A stretch of DNA of 64,000 nucleotides from a virus (lineage: Duplodnaviria > Heunggongvirae > Uroviricota > Caudoviricetes). The notes below the pieces were generated by a model. The model had not been told where the DNA came from. It ran no database searches and saw nothing but the letters and a program-made list of their open reading frames with translations. Positions 45,187-51,202 of the stretch are shown here, piece by piece; position 1 is the first letter of the stretch; every line of letters starts with the position of its first letter. The stretch is from IMG/VR virus record IMGVR_UViG_2565956726_000008; one strand, 5' to 3'. The position numbers and the translations under genes are program-made.

Positions 45187-45323
45187 AATCTTAACTACAA
45201 TATGATTCATTTTGATGATTGTTTCATAAGGAACAGTGAAGTAAGATCTAAGAGGAGTTAAATTTTATACAGTATAATCATAATATTGCAGCAAGGTGGT
45301 TATAATTGAAAGAATATTTAGAT

Positions 45324-46781
45324 ATGAATACATCTCATGTAAGAGTTGTTACTCATATGTGTGGGTTCCTGGTTTGGCTCTATAGTCTTTCAATGTTGCC
45401 ACCAATGGTTGTAGCATTGTTTTATAAAGAAAAAAGCCTGTTCGTTTTCTTTATAACTTTCGTTATATTTTTTTGCATTGGTGGCGGAGCGTGGTATACA
45501 ACTAAGAAATCTGGCATTCAATTACGTACCCGTGATGGGTTTATTATAATTGTAATGTTTTGGATTTTGTTTTCTGTTATTAGTGCATTCCCTTTATGGA
45601 TTGACTCAGAACTTAATTTAACGTTCATTGATGCTCTGTTTGAAGGGGTTTCTGGAATAACAACAACAGGAGCAACTGTAATTGATGATGTTAGTTCATT
45701 ACCTCGGGCATATTTGTACTATCGGTCACAGTTAAATTTTATAGGTGGTTTAGGAGTTATTGTTCTGGCGGTTGCTGTATTGCCATTATTGGGTATTGGT
45801 GGTGCAAAGCTTTATCAGTCAGAAATGCCGGGGCCATTTAAGGATGACAAACTCACTCCCCGCCTGGCCGATACGTCACGGACACTGTGGATAACTTATT
45901 CTTTATTAGGTATTGCTTGTATTGTCTGTTATAGACTTGCAGGAATGCCTTTGTTTGATGCTATTTGTCACGGGATTTCCACAGTTTCGCTTGGTGGTTT
46001 CTCAACTCATAGCGAGAGTATCGGATATTTTAATAACTATTTGGTTGAGCTGGTGGCTGGTTCTTTTTCCCTGCTATCGGCTTTCAACTTCACTCTTTGG
46101 TATATTGTTATTAGCAGGAAAACGATAAAACCTTTAATCAGAGATATTGAACTTCGTTTCTTTCTGTTAATAGCCTTAGGGGTGATCATTGTTACCTCTT
46201 TCCAGGTCTGGCATATAGGTATGTATGACTTGCATGGAAGTTTTATTCATTCGTTTTTTCTTGCCAGCTCCATGCTCACTGATAATGGTTTAGCTACGCA
46301 GGATTATGCAAGTTGGCCCACGCACACGATAGTGTTTTTGCTGTTGTCAAGTTTCTTTGGGGGATGTATAGGTTCAACTTGTGGTGGAATTAAGTCACTT
46401 CGATTTCTTATACTTTTCAAACAAAGCAAACACGAGATAAATCAGCTTTCTCATCCCAGAGCGTTGTTGAGTGTAAATGTAGGAGGGAAGATAGTTACAG
46501 ATCGTGTAATGAGGTCTGTATGGAGTTTCTTTTTTCTTTATACTCTCTTCACGGTGTTTTTTATACTGGTGTTAAATGGTATGGGATATGATTTTCTTAC
46601 ATCATTTGCAACAGTGGCTGCATGTATTAATAATATGGGATTAGGTTTTGGGGCTACTGCATCGTCATTCGGAGTGCTTAATGACATTGCAAAATGTTTA
46701 ATGTGCATAGCTATGATTCTTGGTCGCCTTGAAATTTATCCTGTTATTATATTGTTTTCAGGTTTTTTTTGGCGCTCCTAA
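45324..46781 (+). CDS. trkG: potassium uptake protein TrkG
   Basis: 485 aa from MNTSHVRVV; multi-TM; AT-rich gene as in Rac. Confidence 0.9.
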   Translation: MNTSHVRVVTHMCGFLVWLYSLSMLPPMVVALFYKEKSLFVFFITFVIFFCIGGGAWYTTKKSGIQLRTRDGFIIIVMFWILFSVISAFPLWIDSELNLTFIDALFEGVSGITTTGATVIDDVSSLPRAYLYYRSQLNFIGGLGVIVLAVAVLPLLGIGGAKLYQSEMPGPFKDDKLTPRLADTSRTLWITYSLLGIACIVCYRLAGMPLFDAICHGISTVSLGGFSTHSESIGYFNNYLVELVAGSFSLLSAFNFTLWYIVISRKTIKPLIRDIELRFFLLIALGVIIVTSFQVWHIGMYDLHGSFIHSFFLASSMLTDNGLATQDYASWPTHTIVFLLLSSFFGGCIGSTCGGIKSLRFLILFKQSKHEINQLSHPRALLSVNVGGKIVTDRVMRSVWSFFFLYTLFTVFFILVLNGMGYDFLTSFATVAACINNMGLGFGATASSFGVLNDIAKCLMCIAMILGRLEIYPVIILFSGFFWRS

Positions 46782-46918: not shown

Positions 46919-47710
46919 ATGAGCGAGAAATTAAAGATAGTCTATCGCCCATTACAAGAATTGTCACCGTATGCGCACAACGCCAGGACGCACAGTACTG
47001 AGCAGGTGGCACAACTGGTAGAAAGTATTAAGCAATTCGGCTGGACTAATCCGGTGCTGATTGACGAAAAGGGCGAAATTATTGCGGGTCACGGTCGTGT
47101 TATGGCGGCTGAAATGCTCAAAATGGATTCTGTTCCGGTCATTGTTCTGTCTGGCCTGACGGATGAGCAGAAAAAGGCGTACCGCCTGGCAGATAATCGC
47201 CTGCCGATGAATGCTGGCTGGGATGAAGATCTGTTGCGGATGGAGCTGTCGGACCTAATCAATGCTGATTTTGATGTCTCCCTGACAGGCTTCATCCCGA
47301 CAGAAATTGATGAACTGTTGACGGATGTTTTGCCCGGTACAGGAAATGAGGAGGAGCCGTATACGACGAAAATTGATACGCCTGTTTATGAGCCGTCGGG
47401 CGGTAAACCGGATATCAGTGAACTGTACGACGATACGAAAACTCAGGAGCTGATCAGCCGGATACGTTCGGCGTCCCTTGAGCCTGATATTGAGAAATTC
47501 CTCCTGTGTGCGGCAGAACGTCACACGGTGTTTAATTTCAGCAGAATTGCGGACTATTACGCTCACGCCCCCTCTGAAATTCAGTGTTTTTTCGAGGAGT
47601 CGGCGCTGGTGATCATTGATTATCAGCAGGCTATTGAAAATGGATTTGTCCGGATGACGCAGCGCATGGTGGAGATCATGCATGGTGGTGAGGAGGAGGA
47701 ATATGCGTGA
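46919..47710 (+). CDS. ynaK: ParB-like nuclease domain protein (full-length ynaK-like)
   Basis: 263 aa; N-terminal ParB/Srx motif region (IIAGHGRVMAA); K-12 carries a short version. Confidence 0.65.
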   Translation: MSEKLKIVYRPLQELSPYAHNARTHSTEQVAQLVESIKQFGWTNPVLIDEKGEIIAGHGRVMAAEMLKMDSVPVIVLSGLTDEQKKAYRLADNRLPMNAGWDEDLLRMELSDLINADFDVSLTGFIPTEIDELLTDVLPGTGNEEEPYTTKIDTPVYEPSGGKPDISELYDDTKTQELISRIRSASLEPDIEKFLLCAAERHTVFNFSRIADYYAHAPSEIQCFFEESALVIIDYQQAIENGFVRMTQRMVEIMHGGEEEEYA

Positions 47711-48635
47711 TGATTTTTGCGCCTTTATTCTGACTCACGGGCGACCGGACAAAGTTCTGACTTACCGGACGTTGCGTCGTGCTGGCTATACCGGGAAAAT
47801 TTTTATCGTTGTTGATGATGAAGATAAGACACGGCATCAGTACATGGCTGAATTTGGTGAACAGGTGCTGGTGTTTTCCAAAGCCGATATCGCCAGTCGT
47901 TTTGACGAAGCCGATAATTTCTGTGACCGCCGCTCAATTTTTTACGCCCGTAATGCCTGTTTCGACCTGGCAAAACTGGTCGGGTGTAAATACTTCATTC
48001 AGCTCGATGATGATTATCACGAGTTCCAGTTTCGGGTGGATCGCAACTATGACCAGGCCTATTTTCCGATAAGGAAACTGGATGCGATCCTTTCTGAAAT
48101 GCTGGCGTACTACGAATCAATACCTGCTCTTTCCATCGCTATGTCGCAGGGCGGGGATTTTCTTGGTGACAATGGCGGCCATGCTTCGTGGGTGAAACGC
48201 AAGGCAATGAACAGCTTTATCTGTTCGGTTGATCGACCGTTCTCATTCATGGGGCGCATTAACGAGGATGTGAATACGTACACGAATCTCGGTCGCTGTG
48301 GTGAATTGTTTATGACGATCGGTGCTGTCCAGTTAGGGCAGAAACAGACGCAGAAAAACAGCGGCGGAATGACCGAGCTGTATCTGGATTCCGGAACCTA
48401 CGTTAAAAGTTTTTACTCCGTCATGTATGCGCCGTCGTGCGTAAAAATCTCACTGATGGGTGCCAGCCATAAACGCATTCACCATCAGGTCACCTGGAAC
48501 AACGCTGCAGTAAAAATCCTTCACGAAAAATACAGGAAGAAGACACCCTGCATATCAATGGGGGTGACAAATGATTCCGTATTCGAAAGTCGAGTCTCTG
48601 GCAGCGTGCCGGATGACTGCACAACAAATCGCTGA
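47703..48635 (+). CDS. hypothetical protein with DxD motif (possible GT-A-like nucleotide-sugar transferase; ydaY-like)
   Basis: 310 aa from MRDDFCAF; IFIVVDDEDK and QLDDDYHEF acidic motifs; overlaps ynaK end. Confidence 0.35.
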   Translation: MRDDFCAFILTHGRPDKVLTYRTLRRAGYTGKIFIVVDDEDKTRHQYMAEFGEQVLVFSKADIASRFDEADNFCDRRSIFYARNACFDLAKLVGCKYFIQLDDDYHEFQFRVDRNYDQAYFPIRKLDAILSEMLAYYESIPALSIAMSQGGDFLGDNGGHASWVKRKAMNSFICSVDRPFSFMGRINEDVNTYTNLGRCGELFMTIGAVQLGQKQTQKNSGGMTELYLDSGTYVKSFYSVMYAPSCVKISLMGASHKRIHHQVTWNNAAVKILHEKYRKKTPCISMGVTNDSVFESRVSGSVPDDCTTNR

Positions 48636-48822
48636 CGTTCTGGATGTTGATCTGAACCGACTGAAAGAAAATCGGGAAGCAATGACAGATTTTTATGCGG
48701 CCATCCGTAAGGGCAGAGCGAAAGGTGAAGCCGAGTTACGAGCGGCATTGTTTAAGCTTGCCAGAAAAGGGGATGCCTTTGCTCTGCGCGAACTACTCAG
48801 GGTGGATAAAAATCAGGACTAA
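48571..48822 (+). CDS. small HTH DNA-binding protein (packaging-region)
   Basis: 83-aa ORF overlapping the previous gene end. Confidence 0.3.
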   Translation: MIPYSKVESLAACRMTAQQIADVLDVDLNRLKENREAMTDFYAAIRKGRAKGEAELRAALFKLARKGDAFALRELLRVDKNQD

Positions 48823-48825
48823 CTG

Positions 48826-49920
48826 ATGAGCAGACCGGACTGGGGGGCGTTGCAGCAGGAGTATATTGCTGAATACACCCGCTCCGGTATATCTCCGGTG
48901 GCATGGTGTGAAGCAAGGGGACTGAATTACGCAACAGCCCGTCGTTACATCAAAAAAACTCCGAAAAATGCGCAGACAGAAATGTGCAAAACTGCGCAAA
49001 AAAGTGCGCAGAAAAAATCTGCGCAGACTGCACAAAAGCGGAACGAAAAATCTCAGGAAAAAAAGCCAGTATTCGATGCGGGCCTGAATGAGGGCGACGC
49101 GGAGGAATTTTCGTTCTGTCCCGATGAATTCGGCATTTCTGACCAGCAGGCTAAGTTTGCGATGCTTGTTGCTCAGGGTAAAAAGCCGACAGAGGCGTAC
49201 CGACTAGCCGGTTATGAGGGGCAAGGTGCGACAGCTAATAGCAACGCCAGTCGTATGCTTAGAAATGCCAGGGTTTTTCGCGCTATCAGCTACTTCCGCA
49301 ATCAGTACCAGAAACGCTATACCGCAGACCTGGATTTACTAGTGAGTCAGTTGATGGCCATTGTCCTGGCCGACCCCAATCAGCTTGCACAATTTCGCCG
49401 TGTTAACTGCCGTTATTGCTGGGGCGAGAATCATCTCTACCAGTGGCGCGATATAGCAGAATTCGACAAGGCAGCGGCGCAGGCTTCCAGAGATGGCAAA
49501 CCCGAACCGGAATATGGAGGCCTCGGCTTTGTTGATAACGCCATACCCAATCCGGACTGCCCGAAGTGCTGCGGTGAGGGAACGGGACAGCTTTATATGG
49601 CTGATACCACTCTGCTTGATGGGGATGCGCGGCAATTATATGCAGGGGCAAAATTCGGAAAATTCGGCGTTGAGATCCTGCTGGAGGATAAGGCTGCCGC
49701 CCGGCGTGAATTGTTGCGTTTGCTTTCTGCTGGCGGGGCTTTATGTGCAGATAAGCGGCTACAGGAACTGGAAATTGAACGGCGCAGAATGGAAAACCAG
49801 AAGCTGCGCAAAGAGATCGAAACGGTGGAAGATAATGAACATCCCCAGCCTGTGGCGATCAATATTAATGTGGTTGATGCCAGAGTAAGGAGTGATGAAG
49901 ATGATCTCTCCGACGCTTAA
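48826..49920 (+). CDS. terminase small subunit-like protein (N-terminal HTH, Cys-rich zinc-ribbon-like region)
   Basis: 364 aa; immediately upstream of and overlapping the large terminase gene; CxxC...CPKCC motifs. Confidence 0.45.
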   Translation: MSRPDWGALQQEYIAEYTRSGISPVAWCEARGLNYATARRYIKKTPKNAQTEMCKTAQKSAQKKSAQTAQKRNEKSQEKKPVFDAGLNEGDAEEFSFCPDEFGISDQQAKFAMLVAQGKKPTEAYRLAGYEGQGATANSNASRMLRNARVFRAISYFRNQYQKRYTADLDLLVSQLMAIVLADPNQLAQFRRVNCRYCWGENHLYQWRDIAEFDKAAAQASRDGKPEPEYGGLGFVDNAIPNPDCPKCCGEGTGQLYMADTTLLDGDARQLYAGAKFGKFGVEILLEDKAAARRELLRLLSAGGALCADKRLQELEIERRRMENQKLRKEIETVEDNEHPQPVAININVVDARVRSDEDDLSDA

Positions 49921-51202
49921 TGTGCCTCAGGCGCGATTTCTTTCAATGCCCCATAAATTTAAAGCCTATATTGCTGGTTTTGGCTCGGGCAAAACATGGG
50001 TTGGGTGTGGCGGCATATGCAAGGGGATTTGGGAGCATCCAGGTATAAATCAGGGATATTTTGCGCCAACGTATCCCCAAATTCGCGATATTTTTTACCC
50101 TACAGTGGAAGAAGTTGCTGCTGACTGGGGATTGAACGTAAAAATTAATGAGGGAAATAAAGAGGTTCACTTTTATTACGGACGCCAGTATCGGGGAACC
50201 ACTATCTGCAGATCGATGGAGAAGCCACAAACGATCGTCGGTTTCAAAATTGGTAATGCGTTGGTGGATGAACTGGACATTTTGCCGAAGGAAAAAGCCA
50301 GAACGGCGTGGCGCAAGATAATTGCACGTATGCGTTATAAGATTGATGGACTTCGCAACGGTATTGACGTTACAACCACGCCGGAAGGATTCAAATTTGT
50401 CTACGAGCAGTTTGTTAAAGCCGTGCGTGAAAAAACAGAGCTGGCCTCACTGTATGGTCTGGTGCAGGCATCTACTTTCGATAATGAAAAGAACCTGCCA
50501 GCAGATTACATTCCTTCGCTTCTTGAATCATACCCTCCAGAGCTGATTAAAGCCTATCTTCGAGGACAGTTTACTAACCTGACAAGTGGTACTGTTTACC
50601 ATCAGTTTGACCGGAAACTGAATAATTGCGAAGAAGTGGAGCAGCCAGGGGAGCCGATTTATATTGGGATGGATTTTAACGTTGGAAAGATGGCGGGAAT
50701 CGTCCATGTGCTGCGTTTGGGGCTTCCATGTGCGGTAACTGAAATCATCAATGCCTACGATACGCCGGATATGATCCGCATCATTAAAGAACGCTTCTGG
50801 CTGTATGATGGGAATGATTACCGGAAAGTGAGGGAAATTTATATTTATCCAGATGCTTCCGGGGATTCCAGAAAATCAAGTAACGCAAGTACGACGGATA
50901 TAGCCCAGCTTAAGCAGGCTGGTTTTAACGTTGTGGTGAACAGCTCGAACCCGCCAGTAAAAGATCGCGTTAACTCAATGAATGCAATGTTCTGCAATGC
51001 CAATGGTGAGCGTCGCTATAAAGTTAATGTGAAGCGTTGCCCGTTATATGCCGAATCTCTGGAGCAACAGGTCTGGGATGAGAAGGGGGAGCCTGATAAA
51101 AAATCTGGCAATGATCACCCGAATGATGCCGGAGGTTATTTCATCGTTAAGCAATTCCCTATTGTCAAACCGACCGGAAGAGTCACATCACTTCGGATTT
51201 AA
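49892..51202 (+). CDS. terminase large subunit
   Basis: 436 aa; Walker A GFGSGKT; position before portal. Confidence 0.8.
   Translation: MMKMISPTLNVPQARFLSMPHKFKAYIAGFGSGKTWVGCGGICKGIWEHPGINQGYFAPTYPQIRDIFYPTVEEVAADWGLNVKINEGNKEVHFYYGRQYRGTTICRSMEKPQTIVGFKIGNALVDELDILPKEKARTAWRKIIARMRYKIDGLRNGIDVTTTPEGFKFVYEQFVKAVREKTELASLYGLVQASTFDNEKNLPADYIPSLLESYPPELIKAYLRGQFTNLTSGTVYHQFDRKLNNCEEVEQPGEPIYIGMDFNVGKMAGIVHVLRLGLPCAVTEIINAYDTPDMIRIIKERFWLYDGNDYRKVREIYIYPDASGDSRKSSNASTTDIAQLKQAGFNVVVNSSNPPVKDRVNSMNAMFCNANGERRYKVNVKRCPLYAESLEQQVWDEKGEPDKKSGNDHPNDAGGYFIVKQFPIVKPTGRVTSLRI

Follow-up and report, generated by a model that had tools for sequence, protein, structure and literature searches.

Classical small terminase subunits are 100–200 aa long. 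In lambda, the helix-turn-helix (HTH) of gpNu1 reads several short cosB R elements beside its own gene, with the DNA bent between them; these elements lie outside the gene and need IHF. The pac site of P1 reportedly consists of TGATCA/G hexamer clusters inside pacA under the control of Dam methylation, and that of P22 gp3 and Sf6 gp1 is said to lie inside the small terminase gene and to be transferred together with the recognition domain. How small terminases choose the viral genome is still unclear, and the best-studied Terminase_2 domain, that of the canonical SF6-type G1P, binds pac DNA weakly and without sequence specificity (PMC4737164). The small terminase of Bacillus phages Sam46 and Sam112 carries an N-terminal FtsK_gamma domain (PMC8190038). 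For the PHROG 51 terminases of the F116/Bcep22 type, we found annotation but no functional study in the literature.

Here we analysed a 64-kb window (the whole stretch of 64,000 nucleotides) of viral DNA. All genes and protein domains below lie on the + strand. The region of interest serves packaging initiation in a Rac-like lambdoid E. coli prophage. An 83-aa ORF (48571–48822) is followed by a 364-aa ORF (48826–49920, terS), both directly upstream of the large terminase gene terL (49901–51202; RefSeq start 49901, longest ORF from a GTG at 49892), which overlaps the end of terS. The large terminase matched Terminase_6N (E 3.7e-33) and Terminase_6C (E 3.4e-10) in Pfam. These results confirmed both ORFs of a preliminary description made from the sequence alone and supported its view of a packaging-initiation region. 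Genes for a ParB_N protein (46919–47710) and a TAGT-like glycosyltransferase (47682–48635) form an upstream cassette that co-occurs with the 83-aa ORF. DNA of the 364-aa terminase is present in 907 of 5426 complete E. coli genomes. The ends of the vB_EcoS-... GenBank records were left out as packaging evidence, because the title of the one paper mentioning them suggests that these records are prophages identified in clinical-isolate genomes.

The 364-aa protein is already named 'terminase small subunit' in RefSeq (WP_000089448.1), and its terminase identity is therefore known; what is new here is the repeated motif in its linker DNA. Consistent with that name, residues 1–364 matched the complete PHROG 51 'terminase small subunit' profile (positions 1–261 of 261, E 2.4e-76), and residues 122–321 matched positions 19–129 of Pfam Terminase_2 (PF03592) at 35.1 bits, above the gathering cut-off of 26.1. 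The proposal that the protein is atypical and falls outside known families thus did not hold, as its homology to PHROG 51 spans the full length. Among the families suggested for comparison, Terminase_2 was matched and the Nu1 and P27 types were not: no Phage_Nu1 or Terminase_4 match was obtained in Pfam at E≤0.1. The unusual size was borne out, the protein being far longer than classical small terminases.

Relatives of the protein comprised 1259 cluster representatives at E<1e-10. A profile of the TerS family aligned with SF6 G1P (3zqp; E 6e-16) in two collinear segments that flank a Cys4 insertion. The first covers the canonical Terminase_2 HTH (residues ~104–165, 49135–49320), which the profile aligns with G1P residues 20–101. 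In the second, profile positions 186–222 align with G1P residues 116–152, the region of the β-hairpin and C-terminal helix; in the AlphaFold2 (AF2) model of the 364-aa protein (mean pLDDT 84.8), a β-hairpin (residues 272–286) and a long C-terminal helix (residues 289–336) occupy 49639–49833. The protein thus resembles SPP1/SF6 G1P (3zqp, 2cmp, 4zc3) in its HTH domain, first core helix, β-hairpin and following helix, and in the position of its gene immediately upstream of terL (terS end 49920, terL start 49892/49901). Unlike G1P, it has an extra N-terminal domain, a linker and the Cys4 insertion. The protein ends in a tail (...PVAININVVDAR..., 49834–49917), the type of which tracks the TerL type independently of the N-terminal domain type. 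In a single-sequence PDB search, the Pam5 small terminase was the sole match, and a marginal one. Querying the PDB with the full-length model in Foldseek gave no significant match, the best being small terminases at E>0.5, probably because the TerS monomer is extended and consists of several domains. In all, this modular small terminase comprises an extra N-terminal domain, a linker, the canonical HTH, an oligomerisation core with the Cys4 insertion, and the long C-terminal helix with its tail.

The Cys-rich C-terminal half noted earlier was confirmed and corresponds to a module within the oligomerisation core (residues 188–258, 49387–49599, pLDDT 93–98). Its cysteine pattern is C195-x2-C198 ... 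C245-P-K-C248-C249, and the second knuckle, CPKCCGEG, fits CxxCxGxG, a pattern of zinc-ribbon or DnaJ-like modules. C195, R196, C198, G200, G231, G232, C245, C248, G250 and G252 are invariant in 50 relatives with 26–53% identity, and of 149 more distant family representatives, 114 have the CxxC...CxxC pattern; the other 35 appear to be mostly fragments. From this pattern the module presumably binds zinc in a structural role. The preliminary description had suggested that the protein may combine small-terminase function with another activity; if added by the Cys-rich half, this might be, for example, that of an HNH-like or zinc-finger nuclease. The protein is indeed unusually long, and HNH endonucleases with CxxC pairs are common beside terminase genes (PMC3592412). 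We consider a second activity extremely unlikely, however. Searches of Pfam, NCBIfam and PHROGs gave no HNH or other enzyme family; Pfam also matched nothing when the N-terminal, Cys-rich and 83-aa segments were searched separately; and the 364-aa protein contains just two histidines, neither of them invariant. Moreover, the module is an insertion of ~95 profile columns that separates the two core elements alignable to SF6 G1P, and it also occurs in ordinary family members of ~250 aa such as those of F116 and Bcep22. The Cys4 part is therefore a family-wide insertion in the oligomerisation core and not an added enzyme.

The small terminases of Pseudomonas phage F116 and of Burkholderia phages Bcep22, BcepIL02 and DC1, also in PHROG 51, share the CxxC...CxxC core and are 33–43% identical to the 364-aa protein over residues ~104–285. 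None of the solved small-terminase structures recovered by our PDB searches has a Cys4 insertion, and a literature search on zinc in phage small terminases found nothing relevant. Most PHROG 51 members have ~250 aa, without the N-terminal domain and the linker. The extra length of the 364-aa protein is accounted for by these two parts, a second DNA-binding domain and a linker, and not by a second activity.

The extra domain (residues 1–45, 48826–48960, ending in ...GLNYATARRYIKK), which we term type A, was modelled by AF2 as three helices (6–20, 24–31 and 35–38, the third being short) with pLDDT 87–95. It showed no significant Pfam HTH match and a weak, below-cut-off similarity to the IS66-TnpA HTH (E 4e-4), and in relatives its place is taken by psq-type HTH domains. 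The N-terminal HTH of the preliminary description thus stands as a three-helix domain; the second, canonical Terminase_2 HTH had been missed there. The basic low-complexity linker it reported was recovered as well: the sequence KKSAQTAQKRNEKSQEKK forms residues 63–80 of a disordered basic stretch (residues 46–88, 48961–49089; pLDDT <50 at residues 49–88).

Within the linker-coding DNA lies an array of TGCGCA hexamers and A-tracts (48952–49065, no strand assigned), a candidate pac site. Exact TGCGCA copies start at 48969, 48993, 49005 and 49020, four within 57 nt, and are accompanied by the variants TGTGCA at 48983 and TGCACA at 49029. Although the window holds 30 copies of TGCGCA overall, this is its sole place with at least three per 60 nt. 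A unique cluster in or near terS, as would be expected of a pac site, was found within the 64-kb window and at 39 loci with a type-A domain from different species. At these phylogenetically related loci, and for a motif picked after the data had been seen, the linker DNA contained 221 TGCGCA copies, compared with 20.9 expected from synonymous codon resampling, so that the hexamer is ~10 times commoner than the amino-acid sequence requires; at 38 of the 39 loci, the observed count was reached in none of 500 resamples. The copies were confined to nt +100 to +300 of terS, and their density was 26/kb for the linker, 1.6/kb for the remaining gene and 0.36/kb for the flanking DNA. As a control, the count of the top 7-mer per 240 nt was compared: its median was 5 in long-form linkers, whereas 818 control windows and the short-form genes each gave 2. 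In short-form PHROG 51 genes, neither the 5' end nor the DNA immediately before it contained a repeat array.

Could such repeats arise without any function at the DNA level, as a by-product of a slippage-prone lysine/alanine/glutamine linker co-inherited with its domain? Tandem Repeats Finder reported periods of 12 and 36 nt in the array, and linker length varies among E. coli alleles (348–365 aa for the whole protein). A-tracts are a trivial outcome of AAA lysine codons, slippage can make codons uniform where complexity is low, and domain and linker could have been co-inherited among related loci. Several features nevertheless make this origin very improbable. Each of the three reading frames contains the hexamer (160, 45 and 16 copies in type-A linkers), which accordingly encodes AQ, [MLV]R or CA. 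Ahead of Ala the residue may be T, S, N or P, yet its codon always ends in T. Repeat spacing is irregular (7–24 nt) with no fixed unit, and the tenfold excess over synonymous resampling stands against a coding by-product. Two further points, the orientation of non-palindromic motifs and a one-base motif change, emerged from the comparison of domain types described below. The linker DNA repeats are therefore conserved at the DNA level.

The repeat motif covaries with the type of the N-terminal domain. We distinguished six domain types, each with its own motif: TGCGCA, GGGGCA, GGTACGCA, GGTTCGCA, GGTCGG and GTTTCCA. Non-palindromic motifs were found in both orientations, which slippage would not readily produce. 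A near-identical type-A variant ending in ...AKRYIK[VI] (R39K, K44V/I) had no TGCGCA and instead five to seven copies of TGCGAA / TGCGAATTCGCA; here a change in the domain goes with a change of one motif base, again contrary to a slippage origin. In Stx phage 933W, NYNTARTRIKM is accompanied by four YGATCAT copies at 12-nt spacing. One locus, L054, is an exception, with a psq-like domain but TGCGCA repeats. Supporting an exchangeable unit, the type-A domain and its TGCGCA array were joined to PHROG 51, PHROG 370 and PHROG 32222 cores. From these associations, we infer that the domain and array constitute a portable recognition cassette; being adjacent, the two would be inherited and exchanged as one. 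As the linker motif changes with the N-terminal domain, terS probably carries its own packaging start signal, and the array is most likely the pac site.

Taken together, the data lead us to favour, with some confidence, a modular TerS in which the N-terminal domain reads the embedded TGCGCA array as pac or as its recognition part, with the 83-aa protein as an accessory. In this model, the linker-coding DNA would double as a cis-acting site: its four to six TGCGCA hexamers, interspersed with A-tracts, directly follow the coding sequence for the N-terminal domain that would read them. Several copies of this domain on the terminase ring may bind the array, which would serve as the packaging start signal or the recognition part of it. 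The large terminase would then be recruited via the TerS C-terminal tail, the long helix and tail docking the cognate TerL. Speaking against this reading, the SF6-type domain binds DNA weakly and non-specifically, so that recognition by the ring could be mainly conformational. In contrast to that domain, the separate N-terminal domain here covaries with a simple repeated motif. Literature searches on the array, the Rac prophage terminase and Stx-phage pac sites found nothing relevant.

The array might also be a genuine binding site other than pac, either a late-gene or translation operator bound by TerS, the 83-aa protein or ParB, or a loading site for a modification enzyme. It is intragenic, genes for ParB and for TAGT or a methyltransferase are found immediately upstream, and the SPP1 pac region overlaps promoters (PMC4737164). 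On the other hand, the array follows the type of the TerS N-terminal domain, and the cassette is found on small terminases only, across three core families; a DNA-binding domain specific to small terminases is most simply a packaging-specificity element. Arrays also occur at many loci that have neither ParB nor the 83-aa ORF, so that a site for either protein was rated unlikely. We regard an operator or loading site as unlikely overall and retain the array as the candidate pac site.

Seen in this way, the locus shares single features with several described systems. Like lambda, it has several copies of a short site beside the terminase gene, but it shows no sequence relation to gpNu1, the candidate sites are intragenic, and A-tracts may supply the bend. 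TGNNCA-type hexamer clusters inside the gene of the recognition subunit recall P1 pac, as do the opposed orientations in types D and E and the GATC-containing repeats of the related phage 933W; no homology to PacA was seen, however. As in P22 gp3 and Sf6 gp1, site and reader are linked in one gene and terminase modules are horizontally exchanged, whereas P22 has one 22-bp site and not an array, belongs to another protein family and has no dual-use disordered linker. The Sam46 and Sam112 terminases likewise place an extra sequence-reading DNA-binding domain before a Terminase_2 core, but their added domain is a different one, they have no Cys4 module, and no embedded cognate array is reported (PMC8190038).

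The 83-aa HTH protein proved to be real and conserved. It matched PHROG 309 'terminase small subunit' over profile positions 145–218 of 319 only (E 8e-23), compared with positions 132–284 for a complete member, the 129-aa sole TerS of Pasteurella phage Pmp13 (gp50), to the N-terminal part of which it is homologous (35% identity to residues ~10–80). AF2 predicted three short helices followed by a helical hairpin (pLDDT 91.7), and in BFVD the model matched TerS and phBC6A51-type proteins of 110–185 aa (TMq 0.70–0.81). In the PDB, the model gave non-significant Foldseek matches and a single-sequence search gave none. The HTH and helical hairpin are shared with phBC6A51-type (2ao9) and PHROG 309 terminases; unlike these, the 83-aa protein lacks the C-terminal ~45–100 residues, and a complete second small terminase is encoded downstream of it. 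Its family showed no relation to the TerS family in profile–profile comparison, and it is therefore not a duplicate of the TerS N-terminus.

The ORF is conserved in Enterobacterales (49–82% identity, 20 invariant columns). Its first 14 residues, omitted by RefSeq, are also conserved, supporting the start at 48571, and GGGGGTG lies 4 nt upstream of this start. The stop codon is 3 nt before the terS start codon. The order of small ORF and long TerS is kept in Salmonella, Klebsiella, Yersinia and Serratia, beside a different TerL and portal. Because the two ORFs share a frame in the window, their fusion by programmed read-through was considered, but it was rejected as a conserved feature, since the frames differ in relatives; rare alleles in which the ORFs are fused do exist.

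The match to just the N-terminal part of PHROG 309 terminases, together with the absence of the ORF from many related packaging modules, including many loci that retain the array, would fit a decaying, functionless remnant of a displaced small terminase. A remnant appears quite improbable, however, given that different genera, with identities as low as 49%, preserve both the length and the 20 invariant residues, that at every locus seen the stop codon adjoins or overlaps the start of terS, and that the predicted fold is confident. The 83-aa protein thus resembles a small terminase truncated at its C-terminus; it is conserved and travels with an upstream ParB and DNA-modification cassette. Rather than a second terminase, it is probably an accessory acting at the same DNA, or else a connection to the ParB and modification genes.

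Across a large set of enterobacterial prophages, 933W-type Stx phages among them, a portable N-terminal domain with its array of 6–8-nt motifs may set packaging specificity and move between unrelated cores, with R39K/K44V retuning recognition from TGCGCA to TGCGAA; we propose this wider cassette reading tentatively, as a serious possibility. If true, pac sites and packaging specificity would be predictable from sequence for hundreds of prophages, covering Stx phages and also the Rac-like element, which roughly one sixth of the complete E. coli genomes carry. It would provide a readable recognition code for pac sites, help to predict the start points of generalized and lateral transduction and to spot satellites that copy the site, and mean that one DNA stretch both encodes a linker and forms an array bound by protein. 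The natural domain and motif variants offer specificity switches for direct tests. Finally, the core with its zinc motif, zinc being predicted, represents a widespread structural variant of small terminases.

The window carries a Rac-like lambdoid prophage of E. coli. After its lysis genes come trkG (45306-46781), a gene for a ParB_N protein (46919-47710), a TAGT-like glycosyltransferase gene (47682-48635), an 83-aa ORF (48571-48822, plus strand) and, directly behind it, a 364-aa ORF (terS; 48826-49920, plus strand) with the RefSeq product 'terminase small subunit'; the genes for the large terminase (TerL; 49892/49901-51202), a DUF4055 portal and a Mu-F-like head protein follow. ORF and sequence inspection recovered every element listed in the preliminary description in its place. 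Of 5426 complete E. coli genomes, 907 contain a 1.6-kb stretch of this locus, 536 of them at ≥99% identity. The potassium transporter gene trkG is a moron between the lysis and ParB genes, as it is in the K-12 Rac prophage. No TET/JBP-type dioxygenase gene adjoins the ParB_N-only and TAGT-like (TET-associated) glycosyltransferase genes (46919-48635), and relatives have ParB-methyltransferase fusions in place of the glycosyltransferase. A 2026 paper (PMC13229309) reports phage ParB partners on which DNA base dioxygenases depend.

The 364-aa protein scores above the Pfam Terminase_2 threshold and aligns with PHROG 51 over its entire length (E 2.4e-76). An exhaustive search retrieved 1259 cluster representatives at E<1e-10, mostly of ~250 aa; the alignable part corresponds to residues ~104-300 of the 364-aa TerS and includes the Cys-rich part. 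Proteins annotated as TerS in phages F116, Bcep22, BcepIL02, DC1, PEp14 and others have the same core. Across 50 aligned relatives (26-53% identity), four cysteines (C195, C198, C245, C248) and five glycines (G200, G231, G232, G250, G252) are invariant. Searched as a profile, these 50 sequences align with the small terminase SF6 G1P (3zqp, E 6e-16) over two collinear segments, profile columns 8-90 and 186-222. At the level of profile alignment, the Cys4 module is therefore an insertion of ~95 columns that separates the first core helix from the beta-hairpin. The AlphaFold2 model (mean pLDDT 84.8; core >93) comprises helices (residues 6-38), disorder (49-88), a helix-turn-helix domain (~104-165), a core helix (169-181), a strand-CxxC-helix-CxxC-strand module (188-258), a hairpin (272-286) and a long helix (289-336). 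Only two histidines are present, and no part of the protein matched an enzyme family in Pfam or NCBIfam. The Cys-rich C-terminal half of this protein, for which another activity had been considered, is thus a hallmark of the whole family. Most simply, the Cys4 module would be a structural zinc site. In its original form the observation is an ordinary one: the protein belongs to a known, widespread small-terminase family and is annotated correctly.

The linker DNA is probably an element in its own right. Codons for residues ~43-80 alternate between A-tracts and TGCGCA, with exact copies at 48969, 48993, 49005 and 49020 and one-mismatch copies at 48983 and 49029; nowhere else in the 64-kb window are there at least three TGCGCA per 60 nt. 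The window allele at 48983-48988 is TGTGCA (Cys54), and most close relatives have TGCGCA (Arg54, ...EMRKTAQ...), so one array copy is mutated in the window and Cys54 is a by-product.

We compared 80 related genes, one per bacterial species, plus six loci reached via the small ORF. Thirty-nine share the window's N-terminal domain (type A, ...GLNYATARRYIKK). Their linker DNA contains 221 TGCGCA copies, against 20.9 expected from synonymous codon resampling with amino-acid sequences unchanged; at 38 of the 39 loci, all 500 resamples fell short of the observed number. Per kb, TGCGCA occurs 26 times in the linker, 1.6 times elsewhere in the gene and 0.36 times in the flanking DNA. The copies are restricted to gene nt +100 to +300 at irregular spacing (7-24 nt) and occupy all three frames (160/45/16), encoding AQ, [M/L/V]R or CA. 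A minor second peak (24 copies in the 39 loci) lies downstream of the main array at nt +350 to +400, within canonical helix-turn-helix codons. Judged from these sequences, it is the DNA word that is conserved, not the peptide. As a control, the top 7-mer count per 240 nt was compared: its median is 5 in 69 long-form linkers (from TerS with the extra N-terminal domain and linker), but only 2 both in 818 control windows from these loci and in short-form genes with their upstream DNA.

Long-form genes with other N-terminal domains, several of which score as HTH_psq or HTH_50, have different repeated words in the corresponding position: GGGGCA(AAA), GGTACGCA, GGTTCGCA, GGTCGG, GTGGAAAC and AAGTCAC, often in both orientations and several frames. 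Scanning viral contigs with the type-A domain yielded two natural experiments. The domain together with its TGCGCA array was found on three terminase cores, PHROG 51 with Cys4, PHROG 370 (Stx-phage type) and PHROG 32222. A variant domain (...AKRYIKV), differing essentially by R39K and K44V/I and present on two different cores, lacks TGCGCA and has 5-7 TGCGAA instead, often within TGCGAATTCGCA. Slippage alone would not readily explain why the repeats use several frames and orientations, or why the motif switches by one base. In Stx phage 933W, a homologous domain (NYNTARTRIKM) precedes four YGATCAT spaced exactly 12 nt apart. In its small terminase gene (locus L175, NC_000924, 1501-2307) these repeats encode IDHEIDHKTDHEIDH and contain Dam GATC sites, recalling the P1 pac hexamers. 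One exception to the pairing is Pseudescherichia vulneris (locus L054, 2914-3960), with a psq-like domain and four TGCGCA. The homologue in phage Rac-SA53 (L013, KU052037, 3412-4440), directly downstream of LT-IIa toxin genes, retains some of the linker behind a different N-terminus that lacks the type-A domain; the depositors' annotation describes a fusion of two genes by deletion.

The C-terminal tail of TerS (...PVAININVVDAR..., ...YTPEDY...DLD, ...IIVHNAL... or ...EDYQLQ...) varies with the TerL type and not with that of the N-terminal domain, consistent with TerL docking by the tail and DNA selection by the N-terminal unit. Among the closest TerL relatives are those of phages in the Jersey (SE2) and Kagunavirus groups, which are headful packagers.

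The 83-aa protein matches PHROG 309 'terminase small subunit' in the middle only. It shares 35% identity with the N-terminal portion of the sole small terminase of Pasteurella phage Pmp13, a 129-aa protein whose gene likewise lies behind a ParB gene. The model of the 83-aa protein, with three short helices and a hairpin (pLDDT 91.7), can be superposed on predicted structures of viral proteins of 110-185 aa that are named 'terminase small subunit' or are of phBC6A51 type (TMq 0.70-0.81, probability 1.0, E at best 1.6e-3). Homologues, found in Enterobacterales only, have 81-93 aa and 20 invariant positions. The RefSeq start at 48613 omits 14 residues conserved across genera; since invariant positions lie upstream of it, 48571, with a Shine-Dalgarno-like GGGGGTG ahead of its ATG, is the better start. 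In Salmonella, Klebsiella, Yersinia and Serratia, the small ORF ends at or a few nt before the long-form TerS start codon, and TerL and portal there are from other families. An upstream ParB gene accompanies it in 22 of 24 loci; the other long-form loci have neither. In the window the small ORF and terS share a frame, separated by TAA CTG (48820-48828); rare assemblies have TCA or TTA for TAA, giving a 435-aa fusion, and in other genera the frames differ. Together, the partial matches, model, conservation and gene context identify a conserved, truncated terminase-like protein, predicted to bind DNA and without the part that would contact TerL. Its role, assigned with low certainty, is most likely that of an accessory at the packaging or modification site.

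The best reading of the long form is a portable recognition cassette in which a DNA-binding domain is followed by an array of the sites it would read. This array is most likely the pac recognition element, with the N-terminal domain as its putative reader; a regulatory role instead of packaging is less likely. The proposed cassette would keep site and reader together, which in principle has precedents in P22, Sf6 and P1 and, in a different layout, in lambda Nu1 and cosB. SPP1 and SF6 are further precedents (PMC4737164). We found no description in the open-access literature of site arrays embedded in linker codons and changing with an additional N-terminal domain, and it is such arrays that the present analysis adds.
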